DNA of 64,000 nt, from positions 32,001 through 96,000 of IMG/VR virus record IMGVR_UViG_3300042565_001021, one strand, 5' to 3'. Both the position numbers and the translations under genes were made by a program. This document shows, piece after piece, positions 14,302-62,736 of this stretch (within the stretch, counting starts at the first letter, position 1; the number at the start of each line of letters is the position of its first letter). The notes below the pieces were generated by a model. The model saw nothing but the letters and a program-made list of their open reading frames with translations, was not told the DNA's origin and did no database searches. The stretch is from a virus.

Positions 14302-14368
14302 GATAAATAAGTGTAGTCCACGGAGCGACAACTCCCGACTACTCTAACATTAAAGGGCAATGTCAGCA
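14302..14368. ncRNA. Conserved two-hairpin element, copy 1 (endonuclease-associated)
   Basis: ATAAATA, then GTAGTC/GACTAC stem with CAC bulge and GGAG/CTCC stem, then CTAACATT/AATGTCAG stem. Confidence 0.7.
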
Positions 14369-15027
14369 TGTATATTTATTACGTTTACGCGTACCTCCGA
14401 AGTAAAGACTCAGCAACCGCTAAGGCCGGAACACCTTATTACATTGGTAAAGGCAAAGATGCCCGAATTGATAAACTACACGGGAAAGTTCCGGTACCAA
14501 AAGACAAAAAGAATCGAGTTGTTCTCGAAAGACACTTATCTGAAATTGGCGCCTTTGCCATTGAGCGTCGACTAGTAAGATGGTTTGGTCGTAAGGACTT
14601 AGGAACAGGAATACTATTAAATCAAACAGATGGCGGAGAAGGTTCTGCAGGTAGAATAATGCCAGAATCTGAACGGAAAAATAGATCAGCTCGCAATAAA
14701 GGAAAACCCGGAAGAATCTGGACTGAGGCTGAAAGACTAAACAAATCAACTCAGATGAAAGGTAGATTGCGAACAGCCGAGCAAAGGAAAGTAACATCTG
14801 AGTCATTGAAAGGTAAAGCAAAGCCGCCACGATCCGCCGAGCATAGCGCGAATCTTTCGAGGTCATTGGCAGGTAGGATTAGGAAACCGCTAACTCAAGA
14901 ACATATCGCAAATATCTCAGCCGGAAAAATAGGCAAAACTAAAGGGAAACCGTGGAGCCAAGCAAGAAGAGATGCTCACATTAAACGGTTGGCGCTTCGG
15001 GCTCAGTTGGTGTCGTCTCGGGCGTAG
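14368..15027 (+). CDS. Free-standing GIY-YIG homing endonuclease with NUMOD3-like repeats
   Basis: YYVYAY...PYYIGKG...E...[10 protein letters not shown], then basic repeats ([22 protein letters not shown]). Confidence 0.85.
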
Positions 15028-15370
15028 GATTTTCTTGAACTGGTTCATCTTTTTCCTTTGTCTCTACGCTTAGACCAAACATCTGAAACCGTTGATTCAA
15101 CTCATCCTTGTTGTTGCTGTAGAAGTAGTTAAACAGTTCCTCAAAGGTTTTGTCGTTCTGGAAACTGTTTCGTTCAACTCGCCCCTGACTAATATTTAGC
15201 ACAATTCGAGCCGAAAGGAAGTCTTTGTTCTTCAGCCCGTAAGTGACAAGAAGTTCTTCATCCCACTTAATGTTGCCGGGATTCTTCATGTATCCTGGTT
15301 GAGCAGTGGCATGCTTCTTGCGTGGGTGAGCTGAGTATTTTGCTACGAGGTAAACGTCTTTAGTTTTCAT
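14981..15370 (-). CDS. Hypothetical protein
   Basis: 129-aa ORF with AAGGA SD. Confidence 0.65.
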
Positions 15371-15383
15371 CTTGTTCCTTTGA

Positions 15384-15452
15384 GATAAATAATTGTGTAG
15401 TTCGCGGACCCTCCAATCCCAACTACTCTAACATAAAAGGACTATGTCAGCA
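15384..15452. ncRNA. Conserved two-hairpin element, copy 2
   Basis: GTAGTT/AACTAC stem, CGC bulge, GGA/TCC stem; CTAACATA/TATGTCAG stem. Confidence 0.7.
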
Positions 15453-16228
15453 ATGTATTTAACAAACAAATATACTAAGTGGTATAATAACATCATATTA
15501 ACCGCCAAAGCAAGAAGCTTGCTCAAAATTGGTTATTCTGAGAAACATCATATAATACCTAAATCGCTGGGTGGAAACAACAGTAAAGATAACATTGTTG
15601 CTTTAACCGCAAGAGAACACTATGTTTGCCATTTACTTTTACCTAAGATGACCACCGGTAAGGATAGAAATAAAATGGCCTACGCTCTCTCCACCGTATG
15701 CTAAGTGGAAATAGCGATAGGTATCTTCCTAAATCAAAAATATACGAACTTGTTCGTAAATCTATTAAGTCAATGCTTCTCGGTCGTGTTTTCACTAAAG
15801 ACACTCTACAGAAAATGAGTCTGGCAAAGAAAGGAAAACCTAAACCAGATGACATAGCAGCTCGGCTCCGTGTTGCTCGAAAAGGAATGACTAATAGTCA
15901 AGCACATAGAGACAAGTGTTCGTATGCGCTGAGCGGTAGAACCTTCTCAGATACAGCTAAAAAGAATATGAGCTTAAACCACGCAGATGTGGCAGGAAGT
16001 GGCAACCCAAGAGCAAGAGTATGGTTAGTAACAGACCCCAATGGAAAAGAAACTGTATTAAACGGTAACATGGGACAATTTTGCCAAGAAAATAACTTAC
16101 CTGTTTCAGTAATGAGATCAATTGGCCGCGGAAATCGGCCCCCTAAGAGTGGAAGATGCGTTGGTTGGGGTGTATCTCTTATTTCCGACGAATCCGACAT
16201 AATTCTATTAAGGTCGCGGACAGGTTAA
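15444..16228 (+). pseudogene. HNH homing endonuclease with NUMOD3 repeats, frameshifted
   Basis: EKHHIIPKSLGG...N...LTAREHYVCH HNH core (15444-15704) plus a NUMOD3 ORF (15698-16228); removing one CT/TC unit at 15685-15691 fuses them (AYAL-HRM-LSGN). Confidence 0.8.
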
Positions 16229-17111
16229 TCTCTGGGTCAGCGCAAAGCGAATGATTTACTAACCCTTGCCTGATAATAATGATTGCGTCATCTTGTTCTT
16301 CTTCACTGTCTCCCCATAAAGAGAGATTATTATAAGTCCAGGCAAAGATCTCATCAACGTCCTCTGGGTTAGCACTTCCGCAAATAAGAGCCCTTGCGTC
16401 TTTAATCTTGCCTTTCTTAAACAGATCAACTGCGTCAATGCGCCAGTCTAATATAGACTTGTCAGCAGCAGACGGCATTAACAGCTTTCCTGTAGTTGAA
16501 TGCTGTTGAACCGAGTTCAAGCATTTGCGCAGGTCTGGGTAAGTGCCTTTAACGTAAGAGTCTAAGGTGTCAAGGTCGAACTCCACACCTTCAGTTACTA
16601 GAACAGTTGCTACGCGGGCAGTGAATTCTGTATGATCAGTTTGCGCAAAGTGAAAACCTTGACAACGGCTGTGAAGCGGAGGTGTTATCTTGTTAGGGTG
16701 GTTAGTTGTCAAGATAAATCTAACGCACTGGCTGTATTCTTCCATGGTGGCTTTCATTGCGTCTTGGCCTTGAGGAGATATACGATCTGCTTCGTCTAAC
16801 AGGACTACCTTCATGTCCCCGAACGGCATGGTCTGGCAAAAAGGGTGTACTTTCTCACGGATAAATCCGATACCGTTCTCGCGTGACGCATTGACGTATA
16901 GAACATCGTAGTCATCAATCTCTAATTGATGAACTAACAACTTCGCAAGCGTTGTCTTTCCAATACCTGCGCTACCACTAAACAGCAGGTTTGGTATTGT
17001 CTTTGTCTTAATCCAGGCCTCTACCTGATGCCTTTGAGTTTCGTCTTTGAAGACGTAGGAAGAGACTTCTTTCGGACGGTATTTTTCTGTCCAAAGTTCA
17101 TTAATCGCCAT
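16179..17111 (-). CDS. Sliding-clamp loader ATPase subunit (RFC small subunit/gp44-like)
   Basis: WTEKYRP, GSAGIGKTT, LLDEAD, SRC motif, PDLRKCLN. Confidence 0.93.
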   Translation of the reverse strand: MAINELWTEKYRPKEVSSYVFKDETQRHQVEAWIKTKTIPNLLFSGSAGIGKTTLAKLLVHQLEIDDYDVLYVNASRENGIGFIREKVHPFCQTMPFGDMKVVLLDEADRISPQGQDAMKATMEEYSQCVRFILTTNHPNKITPPLHSRCQGFHFAQTDHTEFTARVATVLVTEGVEFDLDTLDSYVKGTYPDLRKCLNSVQQHSTTGKLLMPSAADKSILDWRIDAVDLFKKGKIKDARALICGSANPEDVDEIFAWTYNNLSLWGDSEEEQDDAIIIIRQGLVNHSLCADPEINLSATLIELCRIRRK

Positions 17112-17175
17112 TTGCTACCTTTCTAAAGTATAGCTAATTATAGTGGTTCAGTCAGGTAAAGAGCAAGTCGTTTGA

Positions 17176-17562
17176 TTAATACCGCGGAGCACCGTTCATC
17201 TGTTCGTTAGTAAGCGGGATGCCCATGTTTTCGTCTAGTATTTCTTCGTCCGAAATAGCTAGGATATCGTCAGTATCAACACGGCGAACTGTATGCTTGC
17301 CATCAGCATCCTTAATATCGACACCTCGTGTCCAGCGTCCATGAGATACAAGGACCCATTGGCCGACTCTAATGTGTTTCTGGTCTGGACCGACAGAATA
17401 AACTCGTCCCCAACGAGGATGAACCCCGTGCAGTTGTTTGTCATCGCTTGGTATAAACAAGCCTGTTGAAGTGACGCGCTCTTTAAACTGCATGTCTGCT
17501 ACAATAACTCCGTCGAACAACGGGGTTAAGGACTTTAATTCAATCGGATCGTATGCGCTCAT
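17176..17562 (-). CDS. groES: Co-chaperonin GroES-like protein
   Basis: PLFDGVIV, TSTGLFIP mobile loop, GRVYSVGP, VGQWV, DILA. Confidence 0.85.
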   Translation of the reverse strand: MSAYDPIELKSLTPLFDGVIVADMQFKERVTSTGLFIPSDDKQLHGVHPRWGRVYSVGPDQKHIRVGQWVLVSHGRWTRGVDIKDADGKHTVRRVDTDDILAISDEEILDENMGIPLTNEQMNGAPRY

Positions 17563-17753
17563 TTAATGTTTTCTTTCTCTAGGATAGTTAAAGTTACTGC
17601 TTTCCGTATCTTCTTAGCTGATACATGTTCTGGTTCTTGCCATGGTTTAAGAATAGGCAAGAACCCTTGTTTCTTTCGTTCTTTCTCAGCCCTGGCTTGG
17701 TAAATTCTACTAGCCTCTTTAATAGTAACCATCATCGGATACTTTTTGCTCAT
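17559..17753 (-). CDS. Hypothetical protein
   Basis: ATGA-coupled on both sides. Confidence 0.55.
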   Translation of the reverse strand: MSKKYPMMVTIKEASRIYQARAEKERKKQGFLPILKPWQEPEHVSAKKIRKAVTLTILEKENIK

Positions 17754-18112
17754 TTTTTAGATTTCGATACTGTGCTTGCTAATGTGCCACGCATTGGCTT
17801 TGCTGTTGGCTTTGGTGCTACTACGGCCTCTTGTGGTTCTTCAAAGTCAGACTCGTCAAGCCCAGATTTTGCGCTAATAGGTGCGTCTGCTTGCGCTGTG
17901 TGCTTAGGCGGATCCATTGCGGTCGGAGTCTTCAGAGCGTAATACTCTTTCATTATCTGATCTTTAGTTTTCACTACTTTGCCGCCGCGGCCGAGCTCGT
18001 CGCCCCTAGCATTTACTTTCATGTTACCGATAGCAATCGCTGTGTCATTTTTAAGGAATAGTTTTTCAACGTCGACTACTTTCCCCATCGCTGTTCTGTG
18101 AATCTTTGGCAT
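17750..18112 (-). CDS. Hypothetical late protein
   Basis: TATAAATA and AGGAG upstream. Confidence 0.7.
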   Translation of the reverse strand: MPKIHRTAMGKVVDVEKLFLKNDTAIAIGNMKVNARGDELGRGGKVVKTKDQIMKEYYALKTPTAMDPPKHTAQADAPISAKSGLDESDFEEPQEAVVAPKPTAKPMRGTLASTVSKSKK

Positions 18113-18157
18113 TGTGTTGTTCTCCTGTTGTTAAGTATTTATAGGACTTAACATGGG

Positions 18158-18670
18158 TTATTTTAAAAACTCTTCGATAGGGAGATCAAAAAATAGAGAA
18201 TTTATGCGGTGTACGCCTATGAGGTAAAGGACATAAGACGCAGTTGAACTACCGCGACCAACTCCCCACACTATTCCATTTTTACGAAAGGTATCAACCA
18301 GATATTTCATAAAACGCAGAATATCAAATGCGTCACGGTCTTGGAACATTAGCAGCTCTTTACCGACCCGTTGTAGTTCTTCGTCGGTCTTACATTCACG
18401 CAATACCCAATTGGCTATGTCTAGTGTTTTGTATTCGTCCGGCATCAACCAATTGCCTTGGTTTTGTTTGTCAAAGTCTTCGACTGAAATCTCTAGTGTC
18501 TTGTATTTTTCTAACTTCGGGAGATCGACAAACAGAGCCTTGATGCTGTTATTAAAGTCCTCTGGGTCGTCGACCCTGATATTGCTCAAGTCAAGCAAAG
18601 GATCTGCGTATAACATATCGCATATCTCTTCTGAGCTTGCGTGAGGAGTTCCGTATTTGTCTATTTGCAC
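18158..18670 (-). CDS. DNA polymerase III alpha (DnaE) fragment as a stand-alone gene
   Basis: RVGKEL...GVGRGSSTASYVLYLIGVHRINS matches the DnaE GPGRGS...LGIT motif; only 170 aa. Confidence 0.8.
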   Translation of the reverse strand: MQIDKYGTPHASSEEICDMLYADPLLDLSNIRVDDPEDFNNSIKALFVDLPKLEKYKTLEISVEDFDKQNQGNWLMPDEYKTLDIANWVLRECKTDEELQRVGKELLMFQDRDAFDILRFMKYLVDTFRKNGIVWGVGRGSSTASYVLYLIGVHRINSLFFDLPIEEFLK

Positions 18671-18924
18671 TTGCTTTCCTCTATCTTCATAATTGCTACC
18701 ATGTTAGCGATTATTTCGTCGTCGATTGCTCTCTGAATTTCAACAGCAATTCGCGCACTCATTTCGGCCTCAAACTTTTCCTGCTCTGTTCGGTTGTCAA
18801 CTGGAGCCTGTAAAGCTTCCCAAGTTGCCTTCTTGCTTACTCGTTTCTTTTTAGGTTTAGGACATTGCGGCATTTCCACAATGTAATCTGTCAGCCATTT
18901 GGCCATTAGTTTTCGATCAGTCAT
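18661..18924 (-). CDS. Small protein with a major-capsid-like helix
   Basis: Probable start MTDRK at 18924; C-terminal FEAEMSARIAVEIQRAIDDEIIANM. Confidence 0.55.
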   Translation of the reverse strand: MTDRKLMAKWLTDYIVEMPQCPKPKKKRVSKKATWEALQAPVDNRTEQEKFEAEMSARIAVEIQRAIDDEIIANMVAIMKIEESKCK

Positions 18925-19096
18925 CTTTTTTCTTAGCTGTGTAACAGCGGTCAAAATAGGCTTCGTCTGCCCGTTCTGCTGCTGCCCGTATCTTCTCACG
19001 GATCAATCTACCAAGTTCACCTTCGTTATAACGCCGTCGCAACTCTTCTGCGCTAGTGTTTAATGTTTTCCACATCTCTTCTTGCTCAGGTGTCAT
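18917..19096 (-). CDS. Small protein (59 aa, not in ORF track), paralogue of the neighbour
   Basis: MTPEQEEMWKTL...; same N-terminus as 19086-19268. Confidence 0.6.
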   Translation of the reverse strand: MTPEQEEMWKTLNTSAEELRRRYNEGELGRLIREKIRAAAERADEAYFDRCYTAKKKDD

Positions 19097-19268
19097 CTTT
19101 GCTAGCTCTGTCTAATAACTCTTTTCCGATCGAATCTCTAAGAGAATCTCTAAGTACCCGCAAGTTTTTTCTGATTGTAGCCTGAAACCTTTCTTCGGCA
19201 ATCTCAGCAGCAATTTCCTCGTTAGTTTTCTTTAGTAAATCCCACACCTTTTGTTGCTCAGGTGTCAT
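19086..19268 (-). CDS. Small hypothetical protein
   Basis: MTPEQQKVWDLLKK... Confidence 0.6.
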   Translation of the reverse strand: MTPEQQKVWDLLKKTNEEIAAEIAEERFQATIRKNLRVLRDSLRDSIGKELLDRASKDDT

Positions 19269-19269
19269 C

Positions 19270-19509
19270 TTAATTAATGTCGATGATGTTCTTAAACTCT
19301 GCCGATTTTTCGACCATCTCAGCTATCTTTATGTCGTTGCGCCTAGTTAGTTCGGCATGGTAATCTCTCTGAAACATTTGGAGTTGATTAATAGCATCTC
19401 CCATTCCGAGCCTATAAGCTTGGCTAATCCTCTTAGCGATTTCACCTATCTTCGTCTGGAGCTCGTCGTCCGTTAGTTTGGTTAAATCCTGTATCAATGG
19501 GTGAGTCAT
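19270..19509 (-). CDS. Hypothetical protein
   Basis: 79-aa helical ORF with AAGGA SD. Confidence 0.65.
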   Translation of the reverse strand: MTHPLIQDLTKLTDDELQTKIGEIAKRISQAYRLGMGDAINQLQMFQRDYHAELTRRNDIKIAEMVEKSAEFKNIIDIN

Positions 19510-19858
19510 GATTAAGTCCTTTAATTAGCACAGCTGGTCGGTTTGAAGTAAACCATTTGAACCACTTCTTCGGATCAATTCCAGTTTGAAGACCGTGCAC
19601 TGTACAGTTATTTACTCTCTGCCAGGTGCCATGCTCGGTAAATTGACACGGGCGACGGTTCATGTCGTAGTCAAACTTAACTGTACCTTCCCACTCAATA
19701 CCTTTCTTACCGTCTTCGATAAACAGATAATCTCCGTCTGCTAAGATATTTAGTGAAGCATATCCAGCAGCTGAGTTATCAAAAACTGCCCATACGATCC
19801 CTTCTGTGTGCTGTTCAGAAAATGCTTCTAAGGTGCCTATAATTCGAATTGGTATCAT
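19442..19858 (-). CDS. Hypothetical protein
   Basis: 138-aa ORF, ATGA-coupled. Confidence 0.55.
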   Translation of the reverse strand: MIPIRIIGTLEAFSEQHTEGIVWAVFDNSAAGYASLNILADGDYLFIEDGKKGIEWEGTVKFDYDMNRRPCQFTEHGTWQRVNNCTVHGLQTGIDPKKWFKWFTSNRPAVLIKGLNHDSPIDTGFNQTNGRRAPDEDR

Positions 19859-20319
19859 GGTTTCTTTGGCGGCGAAAGGTAAGTTGTATTTTTTTCGCTT
19901 GTTAACTTATTTAACTCAATCCAGGACTTTGTCTCTTCTAAATCTAACCCTTCCCACAGCACTTCTGTCGTCTTAGTTTCTTTTGCTAACGACGCTCCTT
20001 CGAGGAATTTCAGATGCGCAGCCATAGCTTCGTCTTTATCTGCGAACCAAGTGTTATCGACTCGTTTCCAATTTTTATCGATGTATGTTTCTGTGTAGTA
20101 ATAAGTCTTTGCGGCGCCGTTAATAGGTTCTACGGTGTAGGCAACAAATCGAGTATTAGATTTATTGTGCTTAACGATGGCCGTCGTCTCTCGCTTTTTT
20201 ACTTGTGGGAGTGTAGTAGAAACTACTCCTTCAGCAGGCGGAAACACTAAGGTAATCGATACCTTAGCTTTCCACAGATCGCGTAACTTTTTAGATATCG
20301 CCTTGAGCACGGTTTTCAC
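19855..20319 (-). CDS. Hypothetical protein
   Basis: 154-aa ORF within the operon. Confidence 0.55.
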   Translation of the reverse strand: MKTVLKAISKKLRDLWKAKVSITLVFPPAEGVVSTTLPQVKKRETTAIVKHNKSNTRFVAYTVEPINGAAKTYYYTETYIDKNWKRVDNTWFADKDEAMAAHLKFLEGASLAKETKTTEVLWEGLDLEETKSWIELNKLTSEKNTTYLSPPKKP

Positions 20320-20698
20320 TTGCGTCTACGCTGAACTTACCGCCTGGATAACGAGACTCAAGCTTAGTTACATTGTCGGCAATGATTTGGTTTGGATCAA
20401 GATTAAGAGCGCGACATGCGTTAGTCCAATACCAAATTACATCACCTAATTCTTTTGCACAATGGGCGCGGGTTTCTTCAGTAAAGGGTTTGCCGTGAAA
20501 CAGGATTTTCTTAAAGATTTCCGAAAACTCACCAGCTTCACCAGACATACCCATTGCCGCTGTAAGGGCAAGAGAGATGTTTAGATTGCCATCCAAGTCA
20601 ATTTGGTAAATGCGTTGGGTAAAATCAGTTGCGCTTTCCGAATCGCGGCTGGTGATAGCTTTAACAAATTCGGTGTATTTTTGTAGATCAATCTGCAT
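20291..20698 (-). CDS. MazG-like NTP pyrophosphohydrolase
   Basis: GEAGEFSEIFKK...KELGDVIWY...NVTKLESRYP. Confidence 0.88.
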   Translation of the reverse strand: MQIDLQKYTEFVKAITSRDSESATDFTQRIYQIDLDGNLNISLALTAAMGMSGEAGEFSEIFKKILFHGKPFTEETRAHCAKELGDVIWYWTNACRALNLDPNQIIADNVTKLESRYPGGKFSVDASENRAQGDI

Positions 20699-32600: not shown

Positions 32601-32865
32601 ACTACCAGCTCAACTTTCATTCTTTCACTCCGAAATGCTTACGCAATGCTTCAAGGTAGTTATCGGTGCCCATAACTTTATTACCGTTGTCAATGGCCGA
32701 ATAAACGTTAGCGCATTCAATCACAATAAGCTCAGCGAACTGTTCGACCGCTGCGTCAAACTCGATAACGTCGTCGTCGTTAAGTTGATGACAGAACGCC
32801 CTGTACCGGTCATACAGCTCGGCTAAGTCAGTTTTTACTGCTAGGTCAATCACTCGTTGGTTCAT
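29647..32865 (-). other. Run of small hypothetical early genes (29647-30060, 30060-~30404, 30395-31252, 31322-31702, 31704-31973, 31924-32280, 32282-32620, 32617-32865)
   Basis: Tightly packed minus-strand ORFs with overlapping start/stop codons; early promoter near 31280-31312. Confidence 0.65.
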
Positions 32866-33455
32866 TCTTCTACTCCTTGTTCAATCCAGTGACAGTTAAA
32901 CAGCCAGCGCACTTCATCAACCTTAGTCTGAGTCGAGCACGACTTTGCGATTGCACCCTTTACTAACTCGTAGGTGTTTTCCTTCTGATCAAACATCTTG
33001 TACAGGAAACGCTGATACTTTTCTTCCTGCTTCTGTACAAACTCAACCGCGTAGATCTTACGGTCAACATCGAGCTTTGCTTTTGCAGCAGCAATACGCA
33101 GATCAATTAAGGTCAGCGAAGTATCACGAACACCGTTCCAGAACTTGTTTTCAAATTCCTCAAAACGTGCCAAGTCCTTAGCGTCCAGGAAAGTACGCAC
33201 GTCGTCGGCCTGCTCGTTAGCGATGATCTCGATCACGTTCTTTTCGCGGCCGATCATGTCCTTGGCCTTGTGCTTGATCATATAGTCTTCGCTTTTACAC
33301 TTTACGCGATGGCCAGAATCCCATGCAACAACAAATCCCTCTTCGCCTATTAGGCCACGCACAAAGGAAATGAACTCCTGTGGATCTGCCACAGAGTTAT
33401 GCGATTTAACTGTAGGAATGTTAAACTCGCGAATCTTATCTTGAAGTATTGTCAT
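32862..33455 (-). CDS. RNA ligase 1 (T4 Rnl1-like), C-terminal part
   Basis: Motif IV EGFVV and motif V RVKCKSEDY, followed by a helical C-domain. Confidence 0.85.
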   Translation of the reverse strand: MTILQDKIREFNIPTVKSHNSVADPQEFISFVRGLIGEEGFVVAWDSGHRVKCKSEDYMIKHKAKDMIGREKNVIEIIANEQADDVRTFLDAKDLARFEEFENKFWNGVRDTSLTLIDLRIAAAKAKLDVDRKIYAVEFVQKQEEKYQRFLYKMFDQKENTYELVKGAIAKSCSTQTKVDEVRWLFNCHWIEQGVEE

Positions 33456-33464: not shown

Positions 33465-33493
33465 ATTATACTACCAAAAAGAATAAATGTCAA
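33465..33493 (-). promoter_or_regulatory. Consensus sigma70 promoter for the ligase C-terminal half
   Basis: TTGACA(33488-33493)-N17-TATAAT(33465-33470), 9 nt before ATG. Confidence 0.85.
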
Positions 33494-33507: not shown

Positions 33508-33584
33508 GATAAATAATAGTGCGGGCCGCGATACTTGTAATATCCGCCCGCTCTAGACGAACCAGGAGGCTCATATGTCCAGCA
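33508..33584. ncRNA. Conserved two-hairpin element, copy 3
   Basis: GCGGGC/GCCCGC stem, CGC bulge, GATA/TATC stem; CTAGAC/GTCCAG stem enclosing AGGAGG. Confidence 0.7.
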
Positions 33585-34312
33585 ACGATATTTATCAGCT
33601 GTATTACACATACCAACTAATTGATCCACGATCAAACTTACCATTTTACATTGGCTTCGCAAAAGATCCGCTGCGACCATATGATCATTTAGCGCAGTGT
33701 AAGAATTGGTTAGCAGGTAAGAAAGTTCCTCATCCAAACTATATCAAAATGGCCAAAATAAGAGACATTCTTAGTGAGGGTTACGAGTTCAAATTTGAAA
33801 TTATTTACAAAAGTTACGATCCAAATCAAGCATACGACAAAGAAACTGAGTTAATAACAAAGTATGGAAGACAAGACTTAAAGACAGGATTCTTATCTAA
33901 TATGAATGCTGGAGGCCGCGGCTGTCTAAATCCAAGTGACGAAGTAAGAAAGAAAATAAGTGACGGAAACTGCGGCACATTAGTTGAACGATGGGGCAAG
34001 GAACGAGCAGAGAAACAACTGGCGTTTCTTCGCAAACAACCCAAAGAAGTGATGGCAGAGCGCGGAATGAGAGGCGCTAAACACATCATTGACAACGGTT
34101 GGTCCAAAGAAACATTATCTAAAAGAAGTAAGTCAAGATTGCTAAACACGGTTAAACGCATCCAAAACCATTATCACCAGCCATACACCGAAGAGTTACG
34201 CATACAAGCAAGAAAAGACAAGGTTGCCTTTGTTGATAAGACAGCCTTGTCTAATTATGTCACAGAGGAAGATATTCGCCAGTTATCATATGACGGCAAG
34301 CCAACAGAGTAA
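33575..34312 (+). CDS. GIY-YIG endonuclease inserted antisense in the RNA ligase gene
   Basis: YYTYQLIDP...PFYIG...R...ETELI...LSNMNAGG. Confidence 0.82.
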   Translation: MSSNDIYQLYYTYQLIDPRSNLPFYIGFAKDPLRPYDHLAQCKNWLAGKKVPHPNYIKMAKIRDILSEGYEFKFEIIYKSYDPNQAYDKETELITKYGRQDLKTGFLSNMNAGGRGCLNPSDEVRKKISDGNCGTLVERWGKERAEKQLAFLRKQPKEVMAERGMRGAKHIIDNGWSKETLSKRSKSRLLNTVKRIQNHYHQPYTEELRIQARKDKVAFVDKTALSNYVTEEDIRQLSYDGKPTE

Positions 34313-34847
34313 GCATGGGCTTATCGTAGTGAATCACAATCCGGTTATCAGGCGCTGTGTATTCAAATACCGGAGTGATTCCGTTTTCAATACACCAAGT
34401 CGAAAACGCCAGATACTCTGGATGAGCAGCAATAAACGGTTCCGCTTGAAGCGCAACATCAGTTAGTCCCATCTTCGTCCCAAAGCGAACCTTACCTTCA
34501 ACCATAAATGGTGACAGAAAAGAACCGTCAAGCTTGGTATAAACAGTATGCGGCTCAGAGAAATCAACATTCGCTAACTGCGTTTCTTCTTTCTCCATCA
34601 AGTTGAAAAATTTATGAAGAGGGCGACGAAGAATCTCACCAGTAGAAGAGCGGAAGATCATGCCGCGCAGTTCGCGCAGGATAGCGTGAGCTTCGTTTTC
34701 AACAGGAGGAAAGGTATCCGCCATCTGTACCACGTAGTTGATGACTGTGTAATCACCGTCCTTTACCGCGACAATGAACTCAGGCTTATCCGCAATCAGC
34801 GGCAATACCTGCGAAATGTTTGTGATCAACGGAAATTCATACTTCAT
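34260..34847 (-). CDS. RNA ligase 1 (T4 Rnl1-like), N-terminal part
   Basis: RELRG, HKFFN, motif I TKLDGS, PVFEY, NRIVIHY; ends GEYLPL*. Confidence 0.88.
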   Translation of the reverse strand: MKYEFPLITNISQVLPLIADKPEFIVAVKDGDYTVINYVVQMADTFPPVENEAHAILRELRGMIFRSSTGEILRRPLHKFFNLMEKEETQLANVDFSEPHTVYTKLDGSFLSPFMVEGKVRFGTKMGLTDVALQAEPFIAAHPEYLAFSTWCIENGITPVFEYTAPDNRIVIHYDKPMLTLLACRHMITGEYLPL

Positions 34848-55829: not shown

Positions 55830-55831
55830 GA

Positions 55832-56461
55832 TTACTCGAATGTCACCCAAGGATCGGCAGCTATTATAGTCCCGTCTGCTCTCATTAACCAATTCTCAGA
55901 ATGTAGGTCAAGAATGATTTCTGTTAGGTTATGCGCATCAGCATACACTTGCGCAGCTTTATAAAGAAATGTTGTTGCTTCTAATATTCCGCTTACGGTG
56001 TTTGCACCAGTAAGCTTACTGTCAAGTAATACCTGTTCTAATCTATTAGATTCGTAACCTAAACCGTGTCCTTCGCACTTGACTGAGTTGGCGACATCCC
56101 ATAATACATTTGCGAGATAGTCGTTGTTAAGAGGATACAATCGTTCAATTCTGATTTGTAACACTTCCTCTGCGTCTACGTCTATACCATGTATAACCGG
56201 AAAATGTTTACTTTTGTACCCGTGGTCTACACAGAAGTGCACAAATGCCAAAGATGCTTTATGAACTCCTTTATCGGAGCCACCGAACCCGCCGCCTACG
56301 ACTTTAACGACAGTATCAGGGTCAGAAAAATGATTCCACACTGTGGCTGTGTATCCTTTGCCAACTTGGTTCCATCCAGACTGCTTACGAATTTCATCGT
56401 TAACGAATCCTGGGTCAAGCTCGTTTAGCTGTTCGTTCTCGAATAGTTCAGTTAGAAACAT
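55832..56461 (-). CDS. Putative internal virion protein, protein-kinase-like fold
   Basis: MFLTELFE; VGKGYTATVW, VVKV, DLHSENWL, AADP. Confidence 0.75.
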   Translation of the reverse strand: MFLTELFENEQLNELDPGFVNDEIRKQSGWNQVGKGYTATVWNHFSDPDTVVKVVGGGFGGSDKGVHKASLAFVHFCVDHGYKSKHFPVIHGIDVDAEEVLQIRIERLYPLNNDYLANVLWDVANSVKCEGHGLGYESNRLEQVLLDSKLTGANTVSGILEATTFLYKAAQVYADAHNLTEIILDLHSENWLMRADGTIIAADPWVTFE

Positions 56462-56468
56462 AATATTC

Positions 56469-57017
56469 TCATAATGTGAACAGTGGACCTTGGATAAACC
56501 AGGTCTCTGTCCTTTCTTTAATCATTCCGTTGCGTAAAGCTTCGATGACGTCGGGTGTAAAGTCTCGATTCCGCCAACCTGATATTATCAGATGTGTTTC
56601 GACCGGAGCGTTACCTTCGAGCTCTAACTGGGCATTCATTCGGTGTCTACCTTCGTGCCCAGTTACCCAAGCCGGGAGAATAAACTTTCCGTTCTCCCAT
56701 TCTTCGTCTACGCTTATGTATAGTGTTGGTGCGCCGAAGCTTCCTCCGGTTCGAGCATGATTTTTCATTTTTTCAATGCTGCTTCTTGCTGAGTCGTCAA
56801 CGGTCAAGTTGCTTGCTAAATTTAAGAACTTGCTTGGCTTCATCATCACCCGCAGGCCCATGTAATCGATTTCTTGGTTGTTAGGCGTCTGGCCCCAACC
56901 TGATTGGTTATCAATGTTTAGCTCAGTAATTCTTGTCAACTCTTCAGACAACACCTTATCGACTTCTTTCTGAAGAATATCAAATACCGTTTCGTTAATG
57001 AATTCTTGTGCTCTCAT
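56469..57017 (-). CDS. Putative internal virion protein, ParB/Srx-like motif
   Basis: MRAQEFINE; GAPTL...GHEGRHR. Confidence 0.55.
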   Translation of the reverse strand: MRAQEFINETVFDILQKEVDKVLSEELTRITELNIDNQSGWGQTPNNQEIDYMGLRVMMKPSKFLNLASNLTVDDSARSSIEKMKNHARTGGSFGAPTLYISVDEEWENGKFILPAWVTGHEGRHRMNAQLELEGNAPVETHLIISGWRNRDFTPDVIEALRNGMIKERTETWFIQGPLFTL

Positions 57018-57868
57018 TAGTCGTTCGCTCCTGGCGCCCACATATCTCCGTTAGGCTTAAAGCTAGTGCTGTTGCTGTTCGATCCGCTCTTATCAATTCC
57101 TGGGCGGGCTCCCCTCTCGTCGCTAGAGACGACCTTGTCACCGCTAACATCGCTGCTCCGTTCGTCTCGTTCGTCTGAGTAAAAATATCCTTGCTCGTCA
57201 CTGAATACCTGATCTGCTTCGGAATACCACGGGTCAGCAGCTATGATAGTTCCGTTTGGCCTCATTAACCAGTTGCCGCCGTGCAAATCTATCCAGCCTT
57301 CGTTTATATTGTGAGCTTCCAAATAAACTGGTAAGGCCTTGCTCAAATACTTAATAGCTTCGACTATCTCGTCGACGTTATTGTTCTCTTTCATGCCCTG
57401 TATTCCTGAATACTTCATTGCTGACAGCAATTCGATTTTCGATTTAGTTAATGCTGCGCCGCCGGTAACAGCATTAGCTAATCTGCTTAGACCGCTCCTT
57501 ACGTCACCGCTACTAATAGGAAGCAACTTCTCCATTCTGATCTGTAATACTTCGGCGTCGTCTATGTTTATTCCGTGAACGATAGGATAGTGCTTACTCG
57601 TGTGTCCGTGATCAACTAGAAAGTGAATAAACGCTAAAGTAATATTTCGATAGCCACCTTGCGCTTCGTAGTCTCCACCACCGACTACTTTAACTACGGT
57701 GTCTGGTTCTTGATAGTGTTGCCAAACTGACGCAGTAGCACCTTGTCCTAGCTTATCCCAGGCTCGTAAGTTTTTAAACTTACCTTGTGATTGCTGCTTG
57801 ATAACCTGGTTAACATAATCCGGGGCAAGTTCGGTTAGTTCAGTGTCAAATAATTCAGTTAGGAACAT
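57017..57868 (-). CDS. Putative internal virion protein, protein-kinase-like fold
   Basis: MFLTELFDTE; LGQGATASVW, VVKV, DLHGGNWL, AADP. Confidence 0.75.
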   Translation of the reverse strand: MFLTELFDTELTELAPDYVNQVIKQQSQGKFKNLRAWDKLGQGATASVWQHYQEPDTVVKVVGGGDYEAQGGYRNITLAFIHFLVDHGHTSKHYPIVHGINIDDAEVLQIRMEKLLPISSGDVRSGLSRLANAVTGGAALTKSKIELLSAMKYSGIQGMKENNNVDEIVEAIKYLSKALPVYLEAHNINEGWIDLHGGNWLMRPNGTIIAADPWYSEADQVFSDEQGYFYSDERDERSSDVSGDKVVSSDERGARPGIDKSGSNSNSTSFKPNGDMWAPGAND

Positions 57869-57877
57869 AGTTAGTAT

Positions 57878-58822
57878 TTACCTGTCGAACAATGCTGCGA
57901 TTTCTGCGGATTTCTTAGCTAACATCTCTTTAGTGTACTTTGCCTTCTCTATTGCCGCAGGGGTTTCTGCTTTGGCGAACTTACTGCTATTTATCGCTGT
58001 GTTGATTTTACCTAAGTAGATTTCTTTTACTCTCGGAATAAGTTCTTCTTTGCCTACGCTCTGTAAGATGCCTTTAATACTGTCGATCATATCGGCTACG
58101 CGGACTTCTCCGCCTACTAACCCGGGATACTGCTTAACTAACGGAGATGGTGTTCCTCCGAAAAACTTAACTATGTCAAGTGCCCAGGTCTTTGGGTTGT
58201 TAGTGACTGTCTTTAGGTCAACATCCTTAACTGTGCGGAACGGGACGAATGTGCCATTTTGGAATTTTGCTTGAACTCCGTGGCCGCCGCCGATGCTCAG
58301 ATTGAGGACTTCACCGAGCGACGAGTAAAGTGAGTTTGCTAACACACCTTTCATGTTCCACTCTGGCCGTAGTGCGTTAGTCCAGTCTTTATTCTCGTAG
58401 TAAGATGTGATTAGGTCGATCTGAACATAATCGTTTCCTATCTTTAGGATAACATTAACGCCGTTGTCTGAAGAAAAAGCAGAGGTTGAATCGCAAAACT
58501 CTTTAATAGCGTCGTTGTAGATCTTAAGGTTTGCGTTATTTGTGGTTCCTTCAATGCGTGGGATATGGAACTGGACATCAACGTCGCCATACTCTTTGTC
58601 TGGCTGTTGAACTAAGTCCCGTTCGTAGTATGTTGCGCTGCCACCCGGTGCCGATATCTCTGTTGGTCCTAATCCTTTTGTCTTTAGGAAGTTGTTCAAG
58701 GCGGGAATAAACTGAGTAGTTAATACCTTCATACATTGCTGAACGAGCCGTGGGGTAATAACTGTGTTTTGTGTTAGTGTCGATGCCCATCCACCTTCTA
58801 AAATAATTTCGTTAATTTTCAT
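57878..58822 (-). CDS. Putative internal virion protein, Pol-beta-like nucleotidyltransferase
   Basis: MKINEIILE; GGS...GDVDV...VQIDL. Confidence 0.6.
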   Translation of the reverse strand: MKINEIILEGGWASTLTQNTVITPRLVQQCMKVLTTQFIPALNNFLKTKGLGPTEISAPGGSATYYERDLVQQPDKEYGDVDVQFHIPRIEGTTNNANLKIYNDAIKEFCDSTSAFSSDNGVNVILKIGNDYVQIDLITSYYENKDWTNALRPEWNMKGVLANSLYSSLGEVLNLSIGGGHGVQAKFQNGTFVPFRTVKDVDLKTVTNNPKTWALDIVKFFGGTPSPLVKQYPGLVGGEVRVADMIDSIKGILQSVGKEELIPRVKEIYLGKINTAINSSKFAKAETPAAIEKAKYTKEMLAKKSAEIAALFDR

Positions 58823-59604
58823 AATATGTTCTTATCCCCAATAAACCAGGTTGTATTCATAAGATTTTCACTCATTTCCTTATTAGTTTTTAGATGTCGA
58901 GTCATCTTACTTTCAATGAATATTTCGCTTGGTCCTGCTTTTTCATATGCTGCTTCATTCCATTCTTTTTCTAAAGAGTTGATATCCGGGAAATCACCGG
59001 TTTGATCAGTTAATGTTAATCCTCTACCTTTAGCTAAGATAAGTTTCTTAAGCCATGTAAATCCTTCAGGAGTTAACCCTTCATTTTTTGAGATTTGTAT
59101 TTTTACTACAGCTTTAAGACGATGTGTTACGCAGCCAATTAATGCAGTAACATAACCGGGACCATTAACAAAGTTCCTAATTCCTTTTAACTCATTTCCT
59201 TTTAGTATTACTAGTGCATCAATACTGTCATCACCAATGAACGAGTAGACATCTTGATCATTTATATTACAGTGATATACATCTTTACCATCTAAACTAT
59301 TTACAATTTGAGATTTAGTAATTATTTGATTTTTCATATCTTGAGTTATATCTAATGCAGAATGGGCGTAGTCAATTTCAGTTAACCCTTCTTCGTTTGT
59401 CATCAACTTTTTAACACGCGGCTTGAATAGCTGGACATCTCCCTTATCGGTCTTTAACACTGGCTGATTGTGCTTATCCTTCTTAAAGCCTTTGATCTCG
59501 GCAGGGCTGTTCTTAAATTTACCCTTCATTACAACATCCCCGGTTTCCAATTCCGGAGGTTGGTAGGTTTCTGCACCTTCTACAATAAACTCGTTTGCTC
59601 TCAT
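58819..59604 (-). CDS. Putative internal virion protein (two-domain)
   Basis: MRANEFIVE; internal GLTE junction. Confidence 0.55.
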   Translation of the reverse strand: MRANEFIVEGAETYQPPELETGDVVMKGKFKNSPAEIKGFKKDKHNQPVLKTDKGDVQLFKPRVKKLMTNEEGLTEIDYAHSALDITQDMKNQIITKSQIVNSLDGKDVYHCNINDQDVYSFIGDDSIDALVILKGNELKGIRNFVNGPGYVTALIGCVTHRLKAVVKIQISKNEGLTPEGFTWLKKLILAKGRGLTLTDQTGDFPDINSLEKEWNEAAYEKAGPSEIFIESKMTRHLKTNKEMSENLMNTTWFIGDKNIL

Positions 59605-60011
59605 TCTTTGTTGCCACCTTTATATAGATCAGCAATACCTTTGCCAAAGTCATTTCCGTTGTATATACGCATAGACGATGGGATAATATCGTTGCCTAAC
59701 TCTTTAGCAAAGACATACATCTCTTTCGCAATACCTTGTCGGCGATACTCTGGCTTTACTTCGACGAATACTGCTTCTAAGTTGTTGTCTGTCACTTTGT
59801 ATGTTACGTTGCCTACTTTGTTGCCTTTAGCAGTGAAGGCGTCAATGTGAAAGTTTTCGCTTGTATTAATCTTCTTAGTTGGCGAATACGGTAGCGGGCC
59901 GTGGTATGCTTTAAGCATATACTTGCCGCCGAGTATCTCTTTCGTCTTTTCAAACCCGCGGCGGAATACTTGCGGGTTGATGCTGTCAGTTATGAACTCA
60001 GATGATTTCAT
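59601..60011 (-). CDS. Putative internal virion protein, GNAT acetyltransferase
   Basis: MKSSEFITD; VEVKPEYRRQGIAKEMY acetyl-CoA motif. Confidence 0.75.
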   Translation of the reverse strand: MKSSEFITDSINPQVFRRGFEKTKEILGGKYMLKAYHGPLPYSPTKKINTSENFHIDAFTAKGNKVGNVTYKVTDNNLEAVFVEVKPEYRRQGIAKEMYVFAKELGNDIIPSSMRIYNGNDFGKGIADLYKGGNKE

Positions 60012-60448
60012 TGCACTCCTTTAATTACTAATCGCCAATCACTAAATTTTAATCGCAACACAGTTAAGAACTGATCTTTATCTGACTCAGTCTGAAATAG
60101 TAAAGTGTTACTAAGCTTATCCCCACTAACTCGCTCACCGTCCGGAAATCGATATATCTGTCCTAAGTATTCAAAATAAAACATGTCAGTTTGATGATCT
60201 TGTAATACTACTGGACCAGAAAAGTGTTTCACTGATAATAATTTACCAAGAGGAATAACAAGAAAACTAACTGGAGAAACCTTTGCCCCGATCTGCGGTG
60301 TAACTTGTTGCTGTTGAGCCAAGAAACTTTGAAGAATCTTAAAATCATCATTATCCTCAAATAACTCAGGACGATCTAATAGCATAATACGGACATCCTC
60401 GTATTGCTCATCTAACACATCAATATAAGAGAACTCAGAGGATTTCAT
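60008..60448 (-). CDS. Putative internal virion protein
   Basis: MKSSEF N-terminus. Confidence 0.55.
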   Translation of the reverse strand: MKSSEFSYIDVLDEQYEDVRIMLLDRPELFEDNDDFKILQSFLAQQQQVTPQIGAKVSPVSFLVIPLGKLLSVKHFSGPVVLQDHQTDMFYFEYLGQIYRFPDGERVSGDKLSNTLLFQTESDKDQFLTVLRLKFSDWRLVIKGVQ

Positions 60449-60870
60449 ATTTGCTGTAACACCGGAATTGATGTTAACCCTAATTCAATAGCTCGTTGCA
60501 CACGGTGATTTCCGTCTATTATAAAACCATCTTTAGCTAATACCGGTGGAGTTTGAGTTAAACTTTGATAAGTAACATTTCTGGCGCGAGCCTGGTCCAT
60601 TTTAAATGGATCAGAGTTAATAATATCCGTCCCTGCTTCTTGATCGCTAAACGTTCTATATCGAGATGCTTCGTCAGAACTAATATTTGTTAATTTATAT
60701 TTGTGCTTAGAGATATACGTCCTATCACCTGCACCCAAATACATGTGCTCATCTAAATAATCTGCTACTACACTTCCGCGCACTATGTCACCAGGTTTGC
60801 CCCAAGCAAAGCCAACAACTCGCTTAATAAAGTCGATCAACCCCTCAGTTATGAATTCTGTCGACTTCAT
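60445..60870 (-). CDS. Putative internal virion protein, ParB/Srx-like domain
   Basis: MKSTEFITE; PPVL...IIDGNHRV...IPV. Confidence 0.7.
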   Translation of the reverse strand: MKSTEFITEGLIDFIKRVVGFAWGKPGDIVRGSVVADYLDEHMYLGAGDRTYISKHKYKLTNISSDEASRYRTFSDQEAGTDIINSDPFKMDQARARNVTYQSLTQTPPVLAKDGFIIDGNHRVQRAIELGLTSIPVLQQI

Positions 60871-61280
60871 TATCTCTTCCGTGTGCAAGCAGGGTGTGAA
60901 CCGTCACTCAATGATTTGCGGATTGCTTCGGAGTAGCGTGTCCATTTCGTTAGCTCTGCGTCGCTCAGTTCCATAAAGCGATTGTCCATCTCTACCCAGG
61001 CTTTTTCAATATCCGTTAATGGTTTGTTATACTGGTATTCGTGCTCGCGGATCTTATCTTCAGCGTTGATTGCTGCTGCGCGATGCTGTACAATACACTT
61101 CTTCGCTGCTTCGCTTGCTGCACCAGAATCAAAACGGTTCTTACCTTCAAAGCGTCCAATCTCTTTGCCATCAGCAGTAGCTACGAAGGTGTTCGTTAAA
61201 TCACCATCCTCGTCTTGGAGGCGGGTAATCTCATACTTTACCTTGCGAGCATCTTCTTTTAGGAATTCTTTGCTTAACAT
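60870..61280 (-). CDS. Putative internal virion protein
   Basis: MLSKEFLKE. Confidence 0.55.
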   Translation of the reverse strand: MLSKEFLKEDARKVKYEITRLQDEDGDLTNTFVATADGKEIGRFEGKNRFDSGAASEAAKKCIVQHRAAAINAEDKIREHEYQYNKPLTDIEKAWVEMDNRFMELSDAELTKWTRYSEAIRKSLSDGSHPACTRKR

Positions 61281-61972
61281 TAAACGGTTTCTCCCCAGGC
61301 AGTCATTAAGTTAACCACCATGCTGTCATTGTTTGGTCCATACAAAGGGAGTAAATAAAAAGACTCAGCGTGTAGCATAACTTCGTTTTTACTTCTGACT
61401 GCTTCTTTAACTGCGCCGACTTGATAGTCCCCGTCATCAAGCATCCATTTAATGGCCCCTATTAGGTTACGGTTGTTAGTATCTCCAACCCAATAACTCT
61501 TGCTAAATCCCGCTGCGGCAACTACCTCGCTAGGATAATGGTTAAACAAGAACATGTCGAGATGCTCAGTAAGGTCAGATATCTCGGGCGACCAACAAGC
61601 AGTAAATTCTCCTCTTGGAATGACTAATAAAGGATTGCCGTAGTCTCTAGCCATACCTTGAGATCCGGTCGCAAACAAAGCATTACTTCTGAACTTTATG
61701 CCAGTCGTTTCCTCGAAATATGCGTCGGCAATCTGATGAATAGCAAGGGGAGTATCTTTTGGCTTTCTGTTGACCGGGCACATGAGCACAGTGACTTGGT
61801 CAACACCCCTTCTTCCGTGATATAAGTCGTGCCTGTATAAGTCAAAGTCGATGGACTTTAGGTAAGGTTGACACTCGCTTTTTAGTACCTCAGCAAAACG
61901 GCGGAATTCCGGGGAGATAACAATTTCTTTCCCGGCTACAGTTACTTCAGTTATAAATTCAGAGCTTTTCAC
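61280..61972 (-). CDS. Putative internal virion protein, ART-like
   Basis: MKSSEFITE (GTG start); LYHG...RSNALFATGS...YG...NEVML. Confidence 0.55.
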   Translation of the reverse strand: MKSSEFITEVTVAGKEIVISPEFRRFAEVLKSECQPYLKSIDFDLYRHDLYHGRRGVDQVTVLMCPVNRKPKDTPLAIHQIADAYFEETTGIKFRSNALFATGSQGMARDYGNPLLVIPRGEFTACWSPEISDLTEHLDMFLFNHYPSEVVAAAGFSKSYWVGDTNNRNLIGAIKWMLDDGDYQVGAVKEAVRSKNEVMLHAESFYLLPLYGPNNDSMVVNLMTAWGETV

Positions 61973-62002
61973 TACTCGACATCCTTGGACATCGAGTATT
62001 TA
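61973..62002 (-). promoter_or_regulatory. Late promoter overlapping an RBS hairpin
   Basis: TAAATA (61997-62002) overlaps TACTCGATGTCC-AA-GGATGTCGAGTA, which ends at the GTG start. Confidence 0.65.
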
Positions 62003-62007
62003 TCTGT

Positions 62008-62595
62008 TTAGCGTCGAGTAATGATTTCGTCCACTAAGCCAAAGTCCAGGGCTTCTTGTGCGGACATGAAATTATCACGCTCCATGGCAGCAGCAAATTC
62101 GTCAAACGTCTTGCCTTTGCTATTGTGATCAACGTAGATCTGCGTAAGAACCTTCTTCATTTTGAGGATTTCTTCGACCTGAATAAGCATGTCCGTTGCT
62201 TGACCACGTGCACCACCGCTAGGTTGGTGAATCATGTGTCGTGCATACGGGAGGATCATGCGCTTACCTTTCGCGCCTGCTTGAGCAAGCAACGAACCCA
62301 TGCTACAGGCCTGACCCATTACGATAGTGCGAACGTCACACTTTACGAATTGCATGGTATCGTAGATGGCCATACCTGCCGTTACGATGCCGCCCGGGGA
62401 GTTGATGTAAAAGATAATCTCTTTGTCTGCATCTTCTGCTTCAAGGAACAACATTTGCGCTACGACTACGCTAGACGACACCTCGTTTACGTCATCGTGA
62501 AGCATAACGATACGGTCTTTAAGCAAGCGACTGTAGATATCGTAGCTACGTTCGCCTTTAGCGGTTTGCTCGACTACCATTGGAATAAGGGACAC
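62008..62595 (-). CDS. clpP: ATP-dependent Clp protease proteolytic subunit
   Basis: [39 protein letters not shown]. Confidence 0.97.
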
Positions 62596-62662
62596 GGGTT
62601 ACCTTTCAAATTGTTAAGTTATATACTAACATAACTGAATAGCAAAGGTCAATCTGTTTGGC

Positions 62663-62736
62663 ATAAATAAAAGTGCAGTTCGCGATGTTGAAGCATCCAA
62701 CTGCCCTAGACTAACCAGGAGGCTATATGTCCAGCA
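62663..62736. ncRNA. Conserved two-hairpin element, copy 4
   Basis: GCAGTT/AACTGC stem, CGC bulge, GATG/CATC stem; CTAGAC/GTCCAG stem enclosing AGGAGG. Confidence 0.7.

Follow-up and report, generated by a model that had tools for sequence, protein, structure and literature searches.

Homing endonuclease genes are the commonest selfish genes of large phages, and the locus described here raises the question of why such genes, drawn from different nuclease families, should begin behind one and the same folded leader. The window, that is, the whole stretch of DNA analysed (64,000 nucleotides; G+C 44.5 per cent), comprises bases 32001–96000 of the 155,045-bp IMG/VR phage record IMGVR_UViG_3300042565_001021, for which CheckV estimates a completeness of 44 per cent and in which simple calling of open reading frames (ORFs) returns 207 minus-strand and 41 plus-strand frames. 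A first-pass annotation had pointed to a two-hairpin element shared by four plus-strand nuclease genes of this window, and the architecture it described is present at all four sites, each time between an N-ATAAATA box and the start of a GIY-YIG or HNH gene. This module of about 80 bases stands before homing endonuclease genes in more than 100 uncultured relatives as well as in this phage; both of its hairpins covary, and it is on the strand opposite the nuclease that the fold is under selection. With moderate confidence we favour the reading that convergent late promoters bracket the leader and that the inner one yields a short antisense RNA masking the nuclease ribosome site; what the first-pass annotation overlooked is that ATAAATA is the late-type promoter box of this phage and that a convergent copy of it lies within the nuclease codons.

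Read along the nuclease strand, the module opens with (G/C)ATAAATA, continues after 1–3 nt with GTG, a 5-nt stem arm, CRC, an inner hairpin, C and the closing arm, and leads through CTCTA(G)AC and a Shine–Dalgarno (SD) sequence to ATGTC(C)AGCA around the start codon. The hairpin next to the box is called hairpin 1 on the sense strand and hairpin B on the antisense strand, and the one that follows it hairpin 2 or hairpin A. The C(G/A)C that had been taken for a bulge is present but is not unpaired as a whole: its middle base pairs with a lone C/T before the closing arm (GC in 25, GU in 8 and AU in 6 of 39 copies, read on the antisense strand), so that the hairpin is one continuous helix with two single bulged bases. 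The four window copies, all on the plus strand and with ATAAATA starting at 14303, 15385, 33509 and 62663, were scored with a covariance model (R1) built for the element after a regular-expression search. Copy 1 (14302–14379; 83.7 bits, E = 4e-14) consists of the sense box GATAAATA at 14302–14309, hairpin 1/B at 14310–14345, hairpin 2/A with the SD in its loop at 14344–14366 and, at 14373–14379, the heptamer TATTTAT, the putative antisense promoter core. Copy 2 (15384–15462; 72.6 bits) has its box at 15384–15391, hairpin 1/B at 15394–15429, hairpin 2/A at 15428–15450 and TATTTAA at 15456–15462, which reads TTAAATA on the minus strand and retains the TAAATA core. Copies 3 and 4 represent an ‘MSS’ subtype in which codons 2–3 encode one hairpin arm: copy 3 (33508–33595; 70.2 bits) has its box at 33508–33515, hairpin 1/B at 33518–33554, a hairpin 2/A at 33553–33582 that takes in the ATG and codons 2–3, and TATTTAT at 33589–33595, and copy 4 (62662–62747; 71.3 bits) has the box CATAAATA at 62662–62669, hairpin 1/B at 62672–62707, hairpin 2/A at 62706–62734 and, at 62741–62747, TACTTAT, with one mismatch (ATAAGTA on the minus strand).

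The strand on which this fold is maintained can be read from the pattern of base changes. In an alignment of 39 diverse copies, set in antisense orientation and compared with 500 shuffles, 93.4 per cent of cells are paired as against 73.0 ± 1.0 per cent in the shuffles, none of which (0/500) is as high, and pairing with slid partners comes to 34–51 per cent; the conserved, stable antisense stem-loop that marks a cis-antisense RNA is thus present. The covariation score is 0.633 versus 0.237 in shuffles and both sides change in 14 of 19 pairs, which bears out the covariation proposed from the window copies. The same columns are 82.8 per cent paired when read as sense, and G·U pairs number 87 in the antisense reading and 9 in the sense reading. 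When the hairpin A helix is defined strand-symmetrically and Watson–Crick pairs alone are scored, 114 copies hold 749 such pairs, 189 sense A·C oppositions (antisense G·U) and 3 sense G·U; the corresponding figures for the outer stem of hairpin B are 711, 29 and 2. The strand asymmetry first noticed in the window therefore holds at scale, together with the preference for the antisense fold, but the count of about ten A·C positions in the four window copies does not, as counting by hand gives about seven. Mean folding energy of hairpin A is −6.0 kcal/mol on the antisense strand versus −2.4 kcal/mol on the sense strand, and from the sense alignment RNAalifold recovers hairpin 1 alone, the second helix being predicted solely on the antisense strand. 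In the antisense 5′ hairpin the third pair (for instance window 14346 with 14364) is G·U, sense A·C, in 114/114 copies and never G–C or A–U, and such invariance may indicate a recognition feature and not mere tolerance.

The element is real, widespread and new to databases, and it occurs at a frequency far above chance. R1 finds 10 copies in the 155-kb record, all at E ≤ 2e-8 and 4 of them in the window, while at least 119 IMG/VR contigs match an IUPAC pattern for the first hairpin; among the IMG/VR matches listed, the complementary stem is present in 122/123 and the full downstream architecture in 112/123. The same pattern run against a prokaryote genome collection served as a negative control, almost all of its 120 matches being due to chance: a complementary stem accompanies 10 of these, and only 4 are full copies. 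The four are probably phage contigs binned into metagenome-assembled genomes (MAGs), namely a 148-kb contig of a Haliscomenobacter sp. MAG (L201), a Bacteroidia bin (L184) and the loci L223 and L254, and these may hint at Bacteroidota hosts. None of the families of Rfam 15 matched at gathering score in the window or in five element-bearing loci, in keeping with the initial failure to recognise the module, and a scan of copies 1 and 2 at a permissive E-value gave as its sole match a chance snoRNA elsewhere. R1 found no copy in T4, Aeh1, S-PM2, Syn9, HTVC008M, S-SRM01 or ACG-2014f, and one degenerate copy, with neither the second hairpin nor TATTTAT, in Pseudoalteromonas phage vB_Psh_XG4; no cultured experimental model for the element was found among the phages scanned with R1. 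The region upstream of a similar nuclease of S-SRM01 is ordinary and sigma-70-like, without the element, and megablast and blastn searches with the locus and with one element copy brought up no real match among 50,697 phage records.

What then does the ATAAATA at the head of each module do? Of its 58 occurrences in the record 34 lie no more than 70 nt upstream of the start of an ORF on the same strand, where 3 would be expected, and these ORF-linked boxes typically stand 15–35 nt before an SD and ATG; a GATAAATA box precedes a tail-fibre gene. Such enrichment directly before phage genes, a structural one included, is what a T4-type late promoter should show. The late promoter of T4 is a bare 8-bp box, TATAAATA, about one helical turn before the start and without a −35 element (PMC2988020). 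A at −13 is a natural variant of the T4 late box, and late transcripts may be of either polarity (PMC2988020); the late box of T4-like cyanophages is NATAAATA (PMC2984593). N-ATAAATA stands on the sense strand of all copies, but there it is fixed by the search pattern, and copies found by R1 only have CTAAATA or GTAAATA. With T4 geometry the sense transcript would begin at the first base of hairpin 1, the box lying about 5 nt before that hairpin in an arrangement that mirrors the antisense one. Related loci encode T4-type terminase and gp46-like genes. Two observations on boxes elsewhere may be added. Window 14293–14309 holds back-to-back palindromic promoter boxes (TATTTATCGGATAAATA), one directed toward the nuclease and the other toward the neighbouring minus-strand ORF, and locus L004 is similar. 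Ordinary genes behind ATAAATA sometimes have, in the 62008–62004 region of the window and genome-wide, a small hairpin of their own between box and start (for example at genome position 94004, minus strand, CTCGATGTCCAAGGATGTCGAG).

The reverse complement of this promoter core, TATTTAT, is spelled by codons 2–5 of the nuclease. It is exact in 76/124 copies, and in 115/124 it has at most one mismatch and stands 5–7 nt after the CAG at the base of hairpin A, a spacing of 6 nt from CAG accounting for 88 copies, one of 5 nt for 14 and one of 7 nt for 9. Counted from the ATG, TATTTAT lies at an offset of 3, 4, 5 or 14 nt and is thus encoded in three reading frames, and a shorter coding offset is compensated by bases added before the ATG (CAGCATG, CAGCAATG, CAGCAAATG). 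Synonymous sites are constrained as well: in 64 non-redundant genes starting M-x-I-Y the third base of codon 2 is T in 64/64 over ten different codons (background 33 per cent), Ile is ATT in 59/64 versus 41 per cent elsewhere in the same genes, and Tyr is TAT in 57/64 versus 68 per cent elsewhere. Where a GIY-YIG body starts FYVYAY, TATTTA is provided by an added MYL or MIF peptide. The commonest variants of the antisense box alter the first base alone (GTAAATA, TTAAATA, CTAAATA), and the same variants appear in the pattern-free sense boxes found by R1; the base preceding the antisense box is A in 47, T in 38, G in 27 and C in 2 copies (A/T/G in 112/114). The 5′ end of the nuclease gene thus carries a candidate for a convergent, outward-facing promoter.

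One alternative confines the module to the sense strand: hairpin 1 would stabilise the 5′ end of the late mRNA, and hairpin 2 would act as a translational operator by concealing the ribosome site, in the way known from I-TevI, segB and Aeh1 mobE. Such a leader has the precedent of the T-even nucleases (PMC2988022), and Dassa et al. took similar hairpins in this way (PMC2677866). Hairpin 1 would suit it, being some 94–96 per cent canonical on the sense strand with a mean of −10.4 kcal/mol and starting at the predicted +1, and so would the SD in the loop of hairpin 2. It is hairpin 2 that makes a sense-only leader unlikely, since the sense version of this helix contains 189 A·C against 3 G·U oppositions and averages −2.4 kcal/mol. 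Moreover, with the promoter upstream of both hairpins the late transcripts would keep any inhibitory fold, 70 per cent of cassettes have no co-directional upstream gene from which read-through RNA could come, and TATTTAT and its spacing from CAG would be left unexplained.

The convergent-promoter reading assigns a part to each of these features. The sense late box N-ATAAATA would start the nuclease mRNA at the first base of hairpin 1, leaving the SD in a weakly structured region, and the inner box in codons 2–5, 5–7 nt before hairpin A, would start transcription of the opposite strand. The antisense RNA would traverse hairpin A with its anti-SD loop, then hairpin B, and stop at the U-rich tract, giving a structured product of 65–80 nt (65–75 nt in the window) complementary to the entire 5′ untranslated region (UTR) of the nuclease mRNA. 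For copy 1, box geometry and fold predict a minus-strand RNA of about 65 nt (14303–14367) that would start some 6 nt after the minus-strand AATAAATA, run through hairpins A and B and carry the tail ACUUAUUUAU; for copy 3, box geometry from the minus-strand GATAAATA predicts an RNA of about 75 nt (33509–33583, minus strand). The predicted RNA begins one base before hairpin A, whose loop reads CUCCU, and the anti-SD loop and U-rich tail that had been pointed out from the window are both present. Hairpin B averages −11.7 kcal/mol on the antisense strand, and the 9 nt behind it contain 6.2 U on average (5 or more in 112/114 copies), a terminator-like arrangement whose U-tract is the complement of the sense promoter. 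By pairing with the mRNA, probably loop to loop first, the antisense RNA would hide the ribosome site and limit nuclease synthesis; natural antisense RNAs are built for pairing from loop to loop, and the matching stable hairpins of the two RNAs, together with the conserved bulges, would suit such a design. The first-pass annotation had offered an antisense silencer, a processing or terminator signal for read-through host mRNA and a mobile-element end as possible functions, and the second, convergent box favours the first of these, as it would give the antisense RNA a promoter of its own.

Orientation bears on the terminator option, namely that the module is an opposite-strand terminator or insulator, or a 3′-end or processing signal, for host read-through with no dedicated antisense promoter. 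Of 76 loci resolved in full, 51 have a nuclease that runs antisense to both neighbours and 17 have one co-oriented with them; the 3′ end of an antisense nuclease often overlaps the convergent host gene, and the U-tract follows directly on the antisense hairpin, all of which such a terminator would account for. Window copies 3 and 4 are then followed by minus-strand sigma-70-like promoters for the next host gene. The copy 3 cassette lies antisense within a T4-type RNA ligase 1, the N-terminal half of which is at 34260–34847 and the C-terminal half at 32862–33455, both on the minus strand (RNA_lig_T4_1 and T4_Rnl1_C by Pfam), and just past the antisense hairpin and U-tract a perfect sigma-70 type promoter (TTGACA-17-TATAAT; 33465–33493, minus strand; 12/12 match) precedes the C-terminal half, transcription of which it is predicted to restart. 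However, co-oriented (n = 28) and opposed (n = 70) cassettes show the antisense-strand signature and TATTTAT to the same degree, and in the former no host gene reads that strand; the antisense features are therefore independent of host read-through. Hairpin A, the fixed 5–7-nt spacing of TATTTAT and the synonymous-site constraint also go unexplained, and many host genes begin right past the U-tract without a promoter of their own, so that we consider a dedicated host terminator distinctly unlikely. Co-oriented cassettes usually start where the upstream ORF ends, the TAA of ATAAATA serving as the upstream stop codon, and one of them (L100:3694-6388) splits a T4-type large terminase into Terminase_6N and Terminase_6C ORFs.

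The closeness of these host genes invites a further possibility, that the inner late promoter mainly re-expresses the host gene severed by the insertion and that the hairpins act as a 5′ leader which stabilises the mRNA of that gene. In opposed cassettes the ribosome site of the host gene is often 10–30 nt past the U-tract with no other promoter in evidence, as at window copy 2, and invading nucleases can bring promoters for their neighbours (review PMC2988022). Promoter donation as the main function nevertheless seems quite improbable: a conserved, stable hairpin right before the U-run would attenuate just such a transcript, some neighbours have promoters of their own, and the module is kept in co-oriented cassettes, where the inner promoter faces the 3′ end of the upstream gene. 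On the favoured reading of convergent promoters and an antisense RNA, the same hairpin and U-tract should also end host transcripts that read through the nuclease gene in the opposed majority of cassettes, while the next host gene may receive some read-through or be transcribed from the inner promoter itself.

It could finally be asked whether the structure belongs to DNA, as a single-stranded fold of the nuclease template strand used in recombination, replication or mobility (an element end or a PeSL-like shuffling site). DNA hairpins tolerate G·T pairs too, leader subtype and nuclease body have been reshuffled, and solo elements persist after nuclease loss, as at L060:128-1903, where an element without nuclease or TATTTAT stands before an intact terminase of 558 aa and is apparently a relic of such a loss. 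Both hairpins, however, are as far from promoter boxes as a transcription start is from its promoter, an anti-SD loop and a U-tail are features of RNA, and no recombinase or HUH-type enzyme is linked to the module; moreover, GIY-YIG and HNH homing enzymes act on duplex DNA. A role as single-stranded DNA therefore appears very improbable indeed. Each rival covers part of the data, and none covers the combination of antisense-strand selection, hairpin A and a constrained, spaced inner box. Two lesser candidates were rejected. Long-range pairing of ATAAATA with TATTTAT in read-through sense RNA would amount to seven A–U pairs closing a loop of about 75 nt, negligible by our estimate; boxes such as TACTTAT are uncompensated, a comparison made unfair by the search pattern that fixed the sense box, and most cassettes have no co-directional upstream genes. 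A tRNA-like or RNase P substrate, suggested by the minihelix look of the fold, finds no support, as the element has no CCA-like tail, no tRNA call and no Rfam match.

Several considerations count against convergent promoters and an antisense RNA. Both promoters and the terminator are inferred from sequence alone, and so are the firing of the inner box, the termination and the sign of the regulation. Homologues of T4 gp55 and Syn9 gp33 were not found in the record, a search rendered uninformative by the incompleteness of the record (44 per cent by CheckV), so that the late-promoter assignment rests on the behaviour of the motif. A promoter box that recurs as an inverted repeat will by its very make-up read as a promoter on either strand, and changes in the core of the inner box (ATAAGTA, ATATATA) occur in 15/98 orientation-classified copies. 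At the other end a spacer of 2–3 nt separates the stem of hairpin B from the U-run, and a consensus terminator scanner called none of the sites scanned; the bulged stem would account for this silence, and we accordingly grade the 3′ end as terminator-like and not as proven. In many opposed insertions the neighbouring host gene starts 10–30 nt past the U-tract, which implies that termination is incomplete or that the antisense promoter acts mainly for this neighbour. Synthesis of the two RNAs would coincide late in infection, which leaves the logic of dose limitation a conjecture, and cyanobacterial antisense RNAs can instead protect mRNAs (PMC3113571).

If these points are allowed for, the module may be seen as a portable two-way expression unit for the free-standing homing endonuclease genes of an uncultured T4-like phage clade. 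We advance, more tentatively than its core, the broader proposal that this clade controls such nucleases with a dedicated family of cis-antisense RNAs of about 70 nt, with the promoter in the nuclease codons and the terminator in the nuclease promoter; self-contained and portable, the unit could be fused to any nuclease body, placed in either orientation between or inside host genes, and would both limit nuclease dose and insulate host transcription. To our knowledge the restraint of homing endonucleases is known for a few T-even cases only, all of them sense-strand hairpins. If the proposal is true, the module would represent a new RNA family and the first case of homing endonucleases controlled by antisense RNA, and a form of control known from transposases and toxin genes would extend to homing enzymes. 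It would also account for cassettes that tolerate insertion against host transcription, even inside RNA ligase and terminase, and would be a case of dense dual coding, one promoter box being a terminator tail too and the other codons too. The element is a specific marker for mobile nuclease cassettes in viral metagenomes, and it could provide a compact two-way regulatory part for T4-type late transcription.

The genes behind the leader show how loosely it is tied to any one nuclease. All four window genes are on the plus strand and have matches among the homing-endonuclease PHROGs, the three GIY-type genes to phrog_314 and the HNH gene to phrog_655. Copy 1 precedes a GIY-type enzyme of 219 aa (14368–15027; phrog_314, E = 1.7e-8) that is 47 per cent identical to the copy 4 nuclease. 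Copy 2 precedes an HNH gene frameshifted near 15700 (15453–16228; PF01844; phrog_655, E = 1.4e-30), whose true start is the ATG at 15453 and not 15444 and whose two ORFs, 15453–15704 and 15698–16228, align to residues 2–83 and 87–214 of an intact 232-aa paralogue in the record; its leader is intact although the gene is frameshifted. Copy 3 precedes a GIY-YIG enzyme of 245 aa (33575–34312; PF22945, E = 2.5e-5, below the Pfam cut-off; phrog_314, E = 2.4e-12), and copy 4 a GIY-type enzyme of 182 aa (62727–63275; phrog_314, E = 6.5e-9) with tblastn matches to Seg-like and group I intron endonucleases. Leader subtype does not track nuclease phylogeny: the nucleases of copies 1 and 4, for all their 47 per cent identity, have leaders of different subtypes, while those of copies 3 and 4 are 26 per cent identical and yet share one subtype including an MSSN start. 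The module also stands before SegE-like GIY-YIG, HNH and HNH_3 proteins, so that the suggestion that it travels with unrelated nucleases is borne out for several GIY-YIG and HNH subfamilies, and its homologues are indeed linked to nucleases. Outside the window, at genome positions 6976 (minus strand) and 2803 (plus strand), GIY-YIG and HNH-like nuclease genes have a plain ATAAATA and SD without the two-hairpin element. Among other genes of the window, the minus strand at 124–2418 encodes a 764-aa ClpB/ClpA-like double AAA+ chaperone with Clp_N, AAA, AAA_2 and ClpB_D2-small domains, which is unusual for a phage.

Among the known systems that resemble the module are the nucleases of T-even phages, in which I-TevI, I-TevII, I-TevIII, segB and Aeh1 mobE have late promoters and sense hairpins that sequester the ribosome site (Edgell, Gibb, Belfort; PMC2988022). 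As there, a late box stands directly upstream of a homing endonuclease gene, structure surrounds the ribosome site and the box is part of an inverted repeat. In the T-even cases, however, the hairpin forms on sense read-through RNA and the late promoter starts inside it, whereas in the present module it is the antisense fold that is under selection, both hairpins lie downstream of the promoter and most cassettes run antisense to the genes beside them; neither a stable sense hairpin occluding the SD nor a late promoter inside a hairpin, the two marks of an I-TevI-type leader, is found.

The element, or a relative of it, has probably been seen before. In ocean metagenomes Dassa et al. (2009) described a TATAAATA box and a conserved hairpin with two complementary motifs in 15/16 nuclease 5′ UTRs, the nucleases being GIY-YIG and Vsr-like enzymes in ‘fractured genes’ and the hairpins being read as mobE-like sense translational hairpins (PMC2677866). 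Their loci resemble ours in belonging to environmental T4-like phages and in having nucleases that split host genes, the terminase and RNA ligase being split here too; the authors reported no strand asymmetry, second promoter or antisense RNA, and the likeness is one of textual description and not of motif logos. An experimentally detected antisense RNA opposite a homing endonuclease gene of a T4-like phage is CfrI of cyanophage S-PM2 (Millard et al. 2010, as related in PMC2984593). CfrI is a different element, about 225 nt long and bridging psbA and the nuclease gene, and R1 finds no match in S-PM2.

In sequence the promoters by window copies 3 and 4 are sigma-70-like, but they lie outside the conserved module, which has no early sigma-70 promoter joined to a stem-loop of the kind that defines the PeSL cassettes. 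These short promoter-early stem-loop cassettes, which Arbiol et al. reportedly described in 2010 around variable genes of T4-type phages, are said to be implicated in modular shuffling, to carry early sigma-70 promoters and to flank diverse small ORFs. The present module, by contrast, has late boxes on both strands, two covarying hairpins and a tie to nuclease genes. The literature searched yielded no account of such an antisense RNA module for homing endonucleases.

A parallel in design is offered by IS10 (Tn10), where convergent promoters at the 5′ end of the transposase gene produce RNA-IN and RNA-OUT, the latter a stably folded antisense RNA of about 70 nt. Like RNA-OUT, the predicted RNA would be a short folded antisense RNA over the ribosome site and the 5′ end of the mRNA, and would curb a self-propagating, potentially harmful enzyme. 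Unlike IS10, the module would serve a homing endonuclease in a lytic phage and would have T4-type late boxes for both promoters, an overlap spanning the whole 5′ UTR (about 62–70 nt), two hairpins with conserved bulges, and a terminator U-tract that is the complement of the sense promoter.

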